This document shows, piece by piece, positions 44,315-45,837 of a DNA stretch of 64,000 nucleotides. The position numbers and the translations under genes were made by a program. Numbering within the stretch: position 1 is the first letter of the stretch; the number at the start of each line of letters is the position of its first letter. Source of the DNA: Okamejei kenojei (lineage: Eukaryota); NCBI GenBank assembly GCA_035221665.1, contig CM069133.1, positions 91,016,001 through 91,080,000 of the forward strand, given 5' to 3'. Below the pieces are notes generated by a model. It ran no database searches. It had not been told where the DNA came from and saw nothing but the letters and a program-made list of their open reading frames with translations.

Positions 44315-44587
44315 TCTGTATTTCTTTGAGCATCCTTCCATTACAGTAACTATATTTTACTATGCTGTGTACAAGTCATACAATCTGTAGATGGTTTATA
44401 TGCAACCAATAATATAGTTACCTCAGTCCCATTAACCCCGCCTAGTTAACATCAATCATAACGCCTTCCCCTTCCTGGGTGCAGCTCAGTGGAAGAATGC
44501 AGCCAGTGCTTGAAGATGTATGTAATACCCTGTGCTATCATTAAAAGATGTTGCACACTTTAAGAATTTGTAAATTGCTTATTTACA

Positions 44588-44622
44588 TGGTGTCAGAAGT
44601 GGGATTCAAACCCACGCCTCCA
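44588..44622 (+). other. Extended primer-binding site: 35 nt complementary to the tRNA-Leu(CAA) 3' end including CCA
   Basis: TGGTGTCAGAAGTGGGATTCAAACCCACGCCTCCA. Its reverse complement gives variable arm, T arm (GGTTtGAATCC), acceptor stem and CCA, with one mismatch to vertebrate tRNA-Leu(CAA) as I recall it. Confidence 0.85.
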
Positions 44623-45257
44623 TGGGGTCACCTGCTCAGCGCCTGATGTCCAGAACAACCAGATCTACCATCCCGATTGCCCAGCGCCAGCTGAAACCTC
44701 GGGTGCTGGAGCCCGCCTGCGTGCGGAGGCGAATTCAAGGGAAACATGAAAGCCAGCGGCGTTCCCATGATCGGTCGTGCAGACCACTCGATCCCCTGTT
44801 GCCTGGACAGGTTGTTCAGTTGCAGACCGCCGGTGGTCACTCCCGTCTGGCTACCGTGGTTGGGGTGGCCGACTCACCTCGTTCGTATCTGGTCGACCAT
44901 GAGGGTACCATCTACCGAAGAAGCCGACAACACCTGCTTGTGGTTAATGAGCCGAAGCCGCAGCCCCCGGGGCCCTATGCCCCGCCACTCTCATACCAGC
45001 AGCCGGCTGCCATCCCAGCCAGTGTTCCCTGCATGCCTCGGTCCCCATCTCGAGCGCCTGGTTCCTCTCTGCGCGGGTCCCCTGTTGCCGGTCGCGGTTC
45101 TCCCTCTCCTGTTTCTCCCACCCCACTGCCCTTCCCTGGTTCCCCAGCTGCCTCGCGTCCTCCTGTTTCTTCTGCTCTTTCGGGGGAAGGGGGAGACAGC
45201 CGTACGCGCTCAGGCCGGATCAGCAAGCCACCTGTTCGTTATGGCGATTTCGTTTAA
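44622..45257 (+). CDS. Open 211-aa ORF: C-terminal part of a gypsy integrase
   Basis: GSPAQRLMSRTTRSTIP (post-catalytic-core motif), L.PGQVV..PRSYLV..G.IYRRSRQHL (SH3-like), Pro/Ser-rich linker, RTRSGRISKPPVRY tail. No DDE core. Confidence 0.75.
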   Translation: MGSPAQRLMSRTTRSTIPIAQRQLKPRVLEPACVRRRIQGKHESQRRSHDRSCRPLDPLLPGQVVQLQTAGGHSRLATVVGVADSPRSYLVDHEGTIYRRSRQHLLVVNEPKPQPPGPYAPPLSYQQPAAIPASVPCMPRSPSRAPGSSLRGSPVAGRGSPSPVSPTPLPFPGSPAASRPPVSSALSGEGGDSRTRSGRISKPPVRYGDFV

Positions 45258-45837
45258 TTCTGCTGTTTAATTCTGTTGTTGTGACAACAATCTGTTTTTT
45301 GATTTTCTAAGGGGAAGGATGTAGATGGTTTATATGCAACCAATAATATAGTTACCTCAGTCCCATTAACCCCGCCTAGTTAACATCAATCATAACGCCT
45401 TCCCCTTCCTGGGTGCAGCTCAGTGGAAGAATGTAGCCAGTGCTTGAAGATGTATGTAATACCCTGTGCTATCATTAAAAGATGTTGCACACTTTAAGAG
45501 TTTGTAAATTGCTTATTTACACAATCCATACCTGGAAGCCCATTCTATCCTGTCCTCTTTGGATCTCTAATTATACTTGCTTTAGCATTAGTGCCCTTGC
45601 TTTCTGCTGCAAAACCCTGGGGTCTAGAATTCACATTCTTAATCGTTCTACTTCTCAATGCCTCTACCCTCTAATTCACTTTTCAAAAAGCCACCACTTT
45701 GACCATGTTTTTAGATATCTATTTCAACTTTCTCTCCATTGTATTTGACAATGTTCCATGGAAGTATATATAATAATGTAAGATAATAAGAGCAGTGAGG
45801 GGTAGGCCACACGGTCCCTCAACACTGCCCTGGCTTA

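Follow-up and report, generated by a model that had tools for sequence, protein, structure and literature searches.

The 64-kb window analysed here (the whole stretch of DNA, 64,000 nucleotides) carries a single-copy, internally deleted LTR retrotransposon whose primer-binding site (PBS) runs on into 17 further nucleotides complementary to tRNA-Leu(CAA). We consider it very probable that this element was produced by reverse transcription, likely in one round, in which plus-strand copying of the mature primer ran beyond its methylated A58 and probably halted at C47d, likewise methylated, before the strand probably re-annealed through three nucleotides close to where pol ends. Taken alone, the element shows a known error and is of ordinary size; the finding lies in its class, which is frequent, fixed in the germ line and marked at nucleotide resolution.

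Anatomy of the element

The element lies at positions 44386-45521 of the window, on contig C3 of the 2.76-Gb genome, and is composed of the following features.

44381..44385, + strand: left target-site duplication (TSD), CAATC
44386..44587, + strand: 5' LTR, 202 nt, with TG...CA ends
44588..44605, + strand: 18-nt PBS, equal to the tRNA-Leu(CAA) complement throughout (sequence match)
44606..44622, + strand: 17-nt over-extension, tRNA complement that begins at A58, spans the T arm and stops one base short of C47d
44620..44622, + strand: 3-nt microhomology CCA, common to the tRNA tract and the integrase donor site
44620..45257, + strand: 3' end of the gag-pol frame (integrase tail) up to the family stop codon, 95-97% identical to family copies
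45258..45319, + strand: 3' untranslated stretch with the terminal polypurine tract (PPT) at about 45310-45319
45320..45521, + strand: 3' LTR, 200/202 identical to the 5' LTR
45522..45526, + strand: right TSD, CAATC

An earlier sequence-only reading of this stretch had described two 202-bp LTRs with two differences, a CAATC TSD and a PPT, all of which are seen in the sequence; the differences are C at 44500 against T at 45434 and A at 44566 against G at 45500, and the purine tract abuts the start of the 3' LTR. It had also described the 35 nt following the 5' LTR as complementary to the 3' end of tRNA-Leu(CAA), and this is borne out by the tRNA genes of the same genome. Compared with the reverse complement of the 3' 35 nt of this tRNA with its CCA, 44588-44622 matches at 34/35 positions for six genes (L121, L122, L124, L126, L129 and L130). 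These were found with the 5' half of tRNA-Leu(CAA) as query, which gave 12 loci; the 3' end was aligned by script in nine of them, and the 34/35 match was seen in six of the nine. The sole mismatch is at tract position 21 (44608), a G to A change in a CpG that is also present in 7/97 loci, and the T at 44606 is the base expected opposite A58. As had been supposed, positions 19-35 find their match in genomic tRNA-Leu genes, and the chance of at least 16/17 matches past nucleotide 18 is 3e-9. Intron-containing tRNA-Leu(CAA) genes form a cluster at G000:C13 63.17-63.20 Mb (L122-L129, L131), in which L128 has a repeat insertion in its intron, L131 an internal deletion and L125 and L127 a T-loop change. 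As ARAGORN wrongly labels these intron-containing genes Thr, anticodon and intron were taken from the sequence. ARAGORN detected no tRNA gene in the 64-kb window, and nothing in Rfam matched over the element.

Family sequence restarts at 44620, leaving the last three nucleotides of the tract (CCA) ambiguous between tRNA and donor; because they are common to both, the true template switch falls within tract positions 32-35. On a long family copy, whose inner region measures 4306 nt, the junction corresponds to about nucleotide 3610 of that region and lies downstream of the rve core match (amino acids 1056-1130 of 1383), so the leader, gag, PR, RT, RNase H and the integrase core are missing, in agreement with the earlier reading. 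The retained integrase tail gave no meaningful Pfam match, and the element has no catalytic domain left, its 0.64 kb of integrase tail still being an open frame. The 18-nt PBS was probably itself copied from the primer, since it is unlike the bulged PBS usual in the family.

The parent family and its primer-binding site

The parent family is large, with 3442 first-look candidates. Its long copies, of about 4.7 kb, contain a single gag-pol frame in the order RT, RNase H and integrase, and Pfam on one of them gave RVT_1 at 531-668, RT_RNaseH at 732-862, Integrase_H2C2 at 983-1022 and rve at 1056-1130, with neither a Pao-type nor an env family listed. Paired TG...CA LTRs, a PBS, a PPT and a short TSD are also present. 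This pol domain order, together with the LTR features, fits a Ty3/Gypsy-type LTR retrotransposon, and the family may resemble Mag-type elements.

The native PBS of the long copies is imperfect, with seven matching nucleotides followed by a bulged stretch. The exact pattern for it in the window's family is found at 625 loci, and seven of the first 16 on contig C1 span the whole inner region. The DNA duplex that this imperfect PBS would form with the tRNA-templated 18 nt has a predicted energy of -13.8 versus -23.0 kcal/mol. Five loci (L134, L135, L146, L182 and L197) combine a normal leader with a PBS changed wholly or in part to the tRNA sequence, the outcome that a transfer duplex with mismatches would predict. 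Two other families have a recurrent PBS that diverges from the tRNA sequence after 12-14 nt, known from pattern listings and not from full-length copies. In the first of them 18/73 listed loci have the imperfect PBS and 32 are clearly over-extended (hand count); in the second the imperfect PBS is found in about 64 of the first 100 of 449 loci and 12 are over-extended (hand count), both patterns missing copies with A at position 21.

A simple deletion could also have produced the element if the leader of its parent already paired with the tRNA over a longer stretch, a case that the sequence-only reading had allowed for, and a review passage does describe a short primer over-extension sequence after the PBS of lentiviruses (PMC13191261). 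Among 20 regions fetched, the 5' LTR-PBS junction was visible in 17, and in 17/17 the tRNA extension is absent from the normal leader, with the PBS mostly bulged. The parent copies thus do not bear out a simple deletion, which is refuted unless an unsampled subfamily has the extension. The tracts also range from 24 to 85 nt in length and differ in their bases at fixed sites, and we judge this origin to be extremely improbable. Read-through of the primer during reverse transcription is therefore the reading that we carry forward.

Over-extended copies across the genome

Genome-wide, 390 loci show 28 nt of tRNA complement after an LTR end when the base opposite A58 is left free (162 with T there, 228 with another base). 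This count is of the exact over-extension pattern, tRNA gene loci were removed before every tract count, and the T and non-T sets were sampled separately and fetched in part, for which reason position-19 ratios were taken from the genome-wide counts. On contig C1, 31/65 loci with a TTTACA-type LTR end and a perfect 18-nt PBS extend for at least 24 nt. Most of the over-extended loci differ from one another in their junctions. For the window's family on C1, exact patterns gave 67 native-PBS copies (hand count), nine perfect-PBS copies with a normal leader, eight whose 18-23-nt tract leads into another part of the element, and 14 over-extended copies, including one that returns to the leader; ectopic joins therefore make up 21/98, about a fifth, by patterns that miss decayed copies. 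Over-extension with other primer tRNAs gave six matches against three in the control, five of the six being Leu(CAA) variants, with a pattern that covered one LTR-end type without spacer only; within this narrow pattern, over-extension from another primer was not seen.

A set of 173 extended sites falls into 30 LTR clusters, 12 of them with at least two members and the largest with 70, 32 and 23. When 106 extended loci were fetched at 7 kb, a second LTR was present in 64, with inner lengths of 369-5501 nt and a median LTR identity of 97%, and automatic calling gave an exact TSD in 34 of these 64 paired loci and a TSD within one mismatch in 38. At the other 42/106 long loci a second LTR was not found within 6.4 kb, and some of these may be other aberrant ends. 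Such loci, and tracts with no recognisable element sequence after them, lend something to the idea that a tRNA fragment or pseudogene was inserted independently, whether by LINE activity, DNA repair or assembly error. Against this, the tract starts with the CCA complement exactly at the LTR end and in antisense tRNA (PBS) orientation in every fetched case and across the 30 LTR clusters, and reversed-pattern controls gave 0 matches; independent insertion has almost no probability in our view. We return to primer read-through as the source of the tracts.

Some loci have more unusual forms. In L279 an 85-nt tract, almost the entire spliced tRNA, follows the LTR end. At L075/L076 (G000:C2 near 8644900-8645020) two 49-nt tRNA tracts stand in tandem with a short LTR end between them, likely the outcome of two over-extension rounds in one molecule. 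A simple test picked out fold-back ends in 5/200 extended sites (L087, L059, L073, L304 and L332), where the over-extended tract turns back and continues as the reverse complement of the PBS and LTR end that precede it.

Junctions

Donors were identified for 114/173 junctions and not found for 59. With one artefact row left out (L279, whose donor matched a tRNA gene), microhomology of at least 2 nt is present at 71/113 junctions with a donor, where about 7 would be expected under a one-sided null and about 18 with overlap on both sides; a 3-nt overlap alone has a chance of about 5%. Extended copies of the window's family comprise 51 sense joins, 11 antisense and 8 unmapped, and the 49 inner sense junctions show no departure from a uniform spread over the inner region (KS p = 0.21).

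Where junctions repeat, either the homology is 6-10 nt long and the copies have different bases at position 19 or 36, which points to repeat events, or a TSD or flank is common to them, which gives them the look of segmental duplicates. One hotspot junction with a 10-nt homology is shared by L117, L118, L120, L208 and L292 (also L104 and L154); five of these loci are antisense at about nucleotide 3283 of the inner region, with both A and T found opposite A58. L261 has two LTR-tract units at one locus, with an identical junction and a different base opposite A58. L013 and L025 are mini elements with an 18-19-nt PBS, a common junction at about nucleotide 3450 and different 5' flanks, which may be a small replicating group or a PBS-like hotspot.

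It had been proposed from the sequence that the window element would record a route to TRIM-like elements. A related possibility is that it is a member or founder of a replicating non-autonomous family with an inherited long PBS. Both LTRs, a perfect PBS and the PPT are kept, so copying in trans is possible, and a few junctions do recur. In the consulted text of Gao et al. (2016; PMC4717578), TRIMs are thought to come from internal deletions and resemble the window element in being small and LTR-bounded, with a PBS, a PPT and a 5-bp TSD. They differ from it in forming multicopy families without coding capacity, whereas the window element is one copy with a 0.64 kb open integrase tail. A search of the 2.76 Gb with one mismatch allowed found the window junction once, which gives no support to the proposed route and refutes family membership for this copy in this assembly, and the recurrent junctions are those on 6-10-nt homologies with differing misincorporation sites or apparent segmental duplicates. 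Being single-copy, the element does not belong to a TRIM family, and we hold a replicating TRIM-like family to be very unlikely; the element works like the deleted HIV-1 proviruses discussed below.

Modification-type marks in the tracts

The bases of the tracts depart from the tRNA genes at a few fixed sites. A wrong base stands opposite A58 in 58% of the 390 loci (228), against 3/393 at control position 23, and among the first 100 non-T loci listed it is A in 69, G in 17 and C in 14 (hand count). The second site is position 36, opposite C47d, the variable-loop C that lies 17 nt from A58: in tracts of at least 40 nt 95/133 mismatch (A 82, C 7, T 6; correct G 38), compared with 0-4 mismatches at each of 14 control positions in the same 133 tracts. 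Two other sources of these marks were considered and rejected. Unseen genes with T47d are rejected for this assembly, as a search from the tRNA 3' half gave 55 matches, comprising 10 genes (all with C at 47d) and 45 element copies (T 31, C 10, A 2, G 2), none of them a gene with another base. CpG decay accounts for positions 21, 28 and 29; as the source of the marks it is rejected, A58 and C47d lying outside CpG and transversions being present.

Tract ends fall at corresponding places. The histogram covers 163 tracts unselected for length, with seven sites from the length-biased 3'-half search excluded. Ends at 34-36 make up 34/151, against 12/163 at 29-33 (bin 35 includes ends at 36, since scoring left position 36 free), and the window tract stops one base before C47d, at this first end peak. 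Of those reaching position 49, one base before G37, 20/29 end there, and only three of the 163 pass position 52. A further six stop at 50-52 and have the right base opposite G37, perhaps by read-through, perhaps by chance. Another end peak, at position 42 (18/91), lies at the end of the self-complementary variable arm and owes part of its size to the hotspot junction. Tracts of at least 53 nt mismatch opposite G37 in 3/4 cases, and the three longest cross G26, where 3/3 mismatch. These three all follow the spliced tRNA, so the mature, spliced, CCA-bearing molecule served as template.

Judged by position and signature, the marks probably correspond to m1A58, m3C47d, m1G37 and m2,2G26. In the accessible part of a human tRNA-Leu sequencing study, marks are found at m1A58, m1G37 (mainly a stop) and m2,2G26, and m3C47d on CAG isodecoders, 17 nt from A58 (PMC5066629). 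The portions at hand of this and three further maps of reverse transcription on tRNA (DM-tRNA-seq, PMC5066629; mim-tRNAseq, PMC8062790; tRAM-seq, PMC11417395; MSR-seq, PMC9072684) give the same four tRNA-Leu sites. They were made with laboratory enzymes on purified RNA; in the present case it was probably the RT of the element itself that left the marks in genomic DNA. In zebrafish and human, the text consulted lists m3C47d for Leu(CAG) and Ser (PMC11417395; PMC9072684), not for Leu(CAA), which speaks against its assignment here. Leu(CAA) nevertheless has C at 47d in its genes and an RT mismatch and stop signature in the tracts, and m3C47d on this tRNA is likely.

The sequence-only reading had raised the possibility that the primer was hypomodified, such that read-through occurred because m1A58 was missing. 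The window copy and 162/390 loci have the correct T opposite A58, the base that this predicts, correct bases at A58 and C47d co-occur weakly (22/56 versus 16/77, OR 2.5, p = 0.03, in a non-random sample), and the nearly full-length tract of L279 has correct bases at A58, C47d and G37. As a general cause, hypomodification is contradicted by the 228/390 loci with a wrong base only at A58. Reverse transcriptases are able to insert the correct base opposite m1A, so a T there is no proof of a missing mark. In the text available, m1A yields mixed RT arrest and misincorporation (PMC4787781). The share of the correct base opposite A58 varies by family (32/92, 7/32 and 8/12, hand counts; p = 0.02), a difference that may be due to enzyme, cell type or chance. 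A primer without m1A58 is the explanation favoured by Hardy et al. for HIV-1, as far as the available text goes (PMC12657518). We nonetheless find it an unlikely one here: it is not upheld generally, but could still apply to the window copy because of the correct base opposite A58, and a subset of primers may be under-modified. Copying across a methylated A58 is the reading that we retain for the class.

Proposed mechanism

Plus-strand synthesis from the PPT copies first the LTR and next the attached primer, with m1A58 as the normal stop (PMC13191261). The imperfect native PBS would pair poorly with the tRNA-templated 18 nt, and the normal transfer would likely be delayed. The RT would then cross m1A58, often inserting a wrong base, and stall at C47d or G37, after which the overhang would likely anneal to a short homology on the minus strand (in the window, 3 nt near the end of pol). 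The minus strand could be incomplete or looped out at the jump. Synthesis would complete both LTRs, and the shortened DNA would integrate with a TSD. We infer that the jump was a plus-strand transfer and that the product was inserted by integrase. The CCA, the splicing and the site-specific mismatches in sister copies suggest that the product was formed during reverse transcription. In this respect the origin proposed from the sequence (read-through past A58, aberrant plus-strand transfer and normal integration) stands, and the part that falls is the hypomodified primer as a general cause, given the 58% of wrong bases at A58.

That the imperfect native PBS delays normal transfer and makes such errors frequent seems to us slightly better than an even bet. 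We hold it at this level because the families compared all have an imperfect PBS, known in two of them from pattern listings; HIV-1, in which such products arise despite a matched PBS, speaks against the link.

Comparison with known systems

Deletions in spleen necrosis virus vectors were reportedly traced by Pulsinelli and Temin in 1991 to mis-terminated plus-strand strong-stop DNA, with over-copied primer and transfer to short homology downstream of the PBS, in what are said to have been single-round cell-culture vectors.

The closest known class is in HIV-1. In the accessible text of Hardy et al. (2025; PMC12657518), 44 defective proviruses have 7-54 nt of tRNA-Lys3 at the deletion junction, put down to "aberrant (delayed) second-strand transfer"; a position-58 change was seen in 5/44, read-through was ascribed to modification profiles, and a single case came from the authors' own sequences. 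As here, primer sequence beyond the 18-nt PBS marks the deletion junction and the LTRs are intact. HIV-1 is a somatic retrovirus, whereas the present cases are germ-line LTR retrotransposons at hundreds of loci with an imperfect native PBS, and the 5/44 changes at 58 contrast with 58% at A58 and further marks at C47d, G37 and G26. Two further HIV-1 papers give m1A58 as the main plus-strand stop, with minor products that stop at modifications further on, position 37 among them, and treat long read-through products as dead ends (PMC13191261; PMC8599865), Fukuda et al. stating that products beyond position 54 cannot integrate (PMC8599865). Here, many such products lie between paired LTRs with TSDs. 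A pile-up of tract ends at 54/55 was not visible; the longer patterns start at 28 nt, and ends at 23-24 occur in only 2/65 C1 loci.

A mismatched PBS has also been described elsewhere. In mouse ETn, MusD and IAP it is the commonest form, departing from the primer as here, some copies revert to a perfect match, and it has been proposed as an escape from tRNA-fragment silencing (Cullen and Schorn, 2020; PMC7472051). The text of that account available to us does not name over-extension or deleted products as a cost.

Significance

The mechanism has already been published for HIV-1. What is new, as far as our searches reach, is the germ-line scale, the readable modification map, the likely m3C47d on Leu(CAA) and the possible link to an imperfect PBS. 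In the full-text literature, with thin coverage of subscription papers, older virology and supplements, we found no report of such tracts in germ-line LTR retrotransposons and, judging mostly from listings, no reading of tRNA modifications from them; m3C47d on Leu(CAA) was likewise not reported there, though supplement tables could list some isodecoder.

The role of m1A58 as a stop has been tested mainly in HIV-1, where read-through was ascribed to missing methylation, and this genome holds the natural results of hundreds of individual molecules. These suggest that the RT of a retrotransposon frequently passes methylated A58, making errors, and halts at modifications further on, and that its products are integrated nonetheless. 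More broadly, and with about equal chances of being right or wrong, we propose that retrotransposon RTs have written germ-line tRNA modification into genomes, where assemblies preserve it molecule by molecule and in datable form. In this proposal, some 400 copies would chart the positions of m1A58, m3C47d on Leu(CAA), m1G37 and m2,2G26, with an error spectrum particular to each family, and would be abundant as an imperfect PBS is kept, possibly against tRNA-fragment silencing, at the price of about a fifth of insertions being dead deleted copies. If this is general, tRNA modification sites could be read from assemblies and roughly dated by LTR divergence, including in species whose RNA is inaccessible, and imperfect PBSs would have a measurable cost and be a frequent one-step source of short LTR elements.
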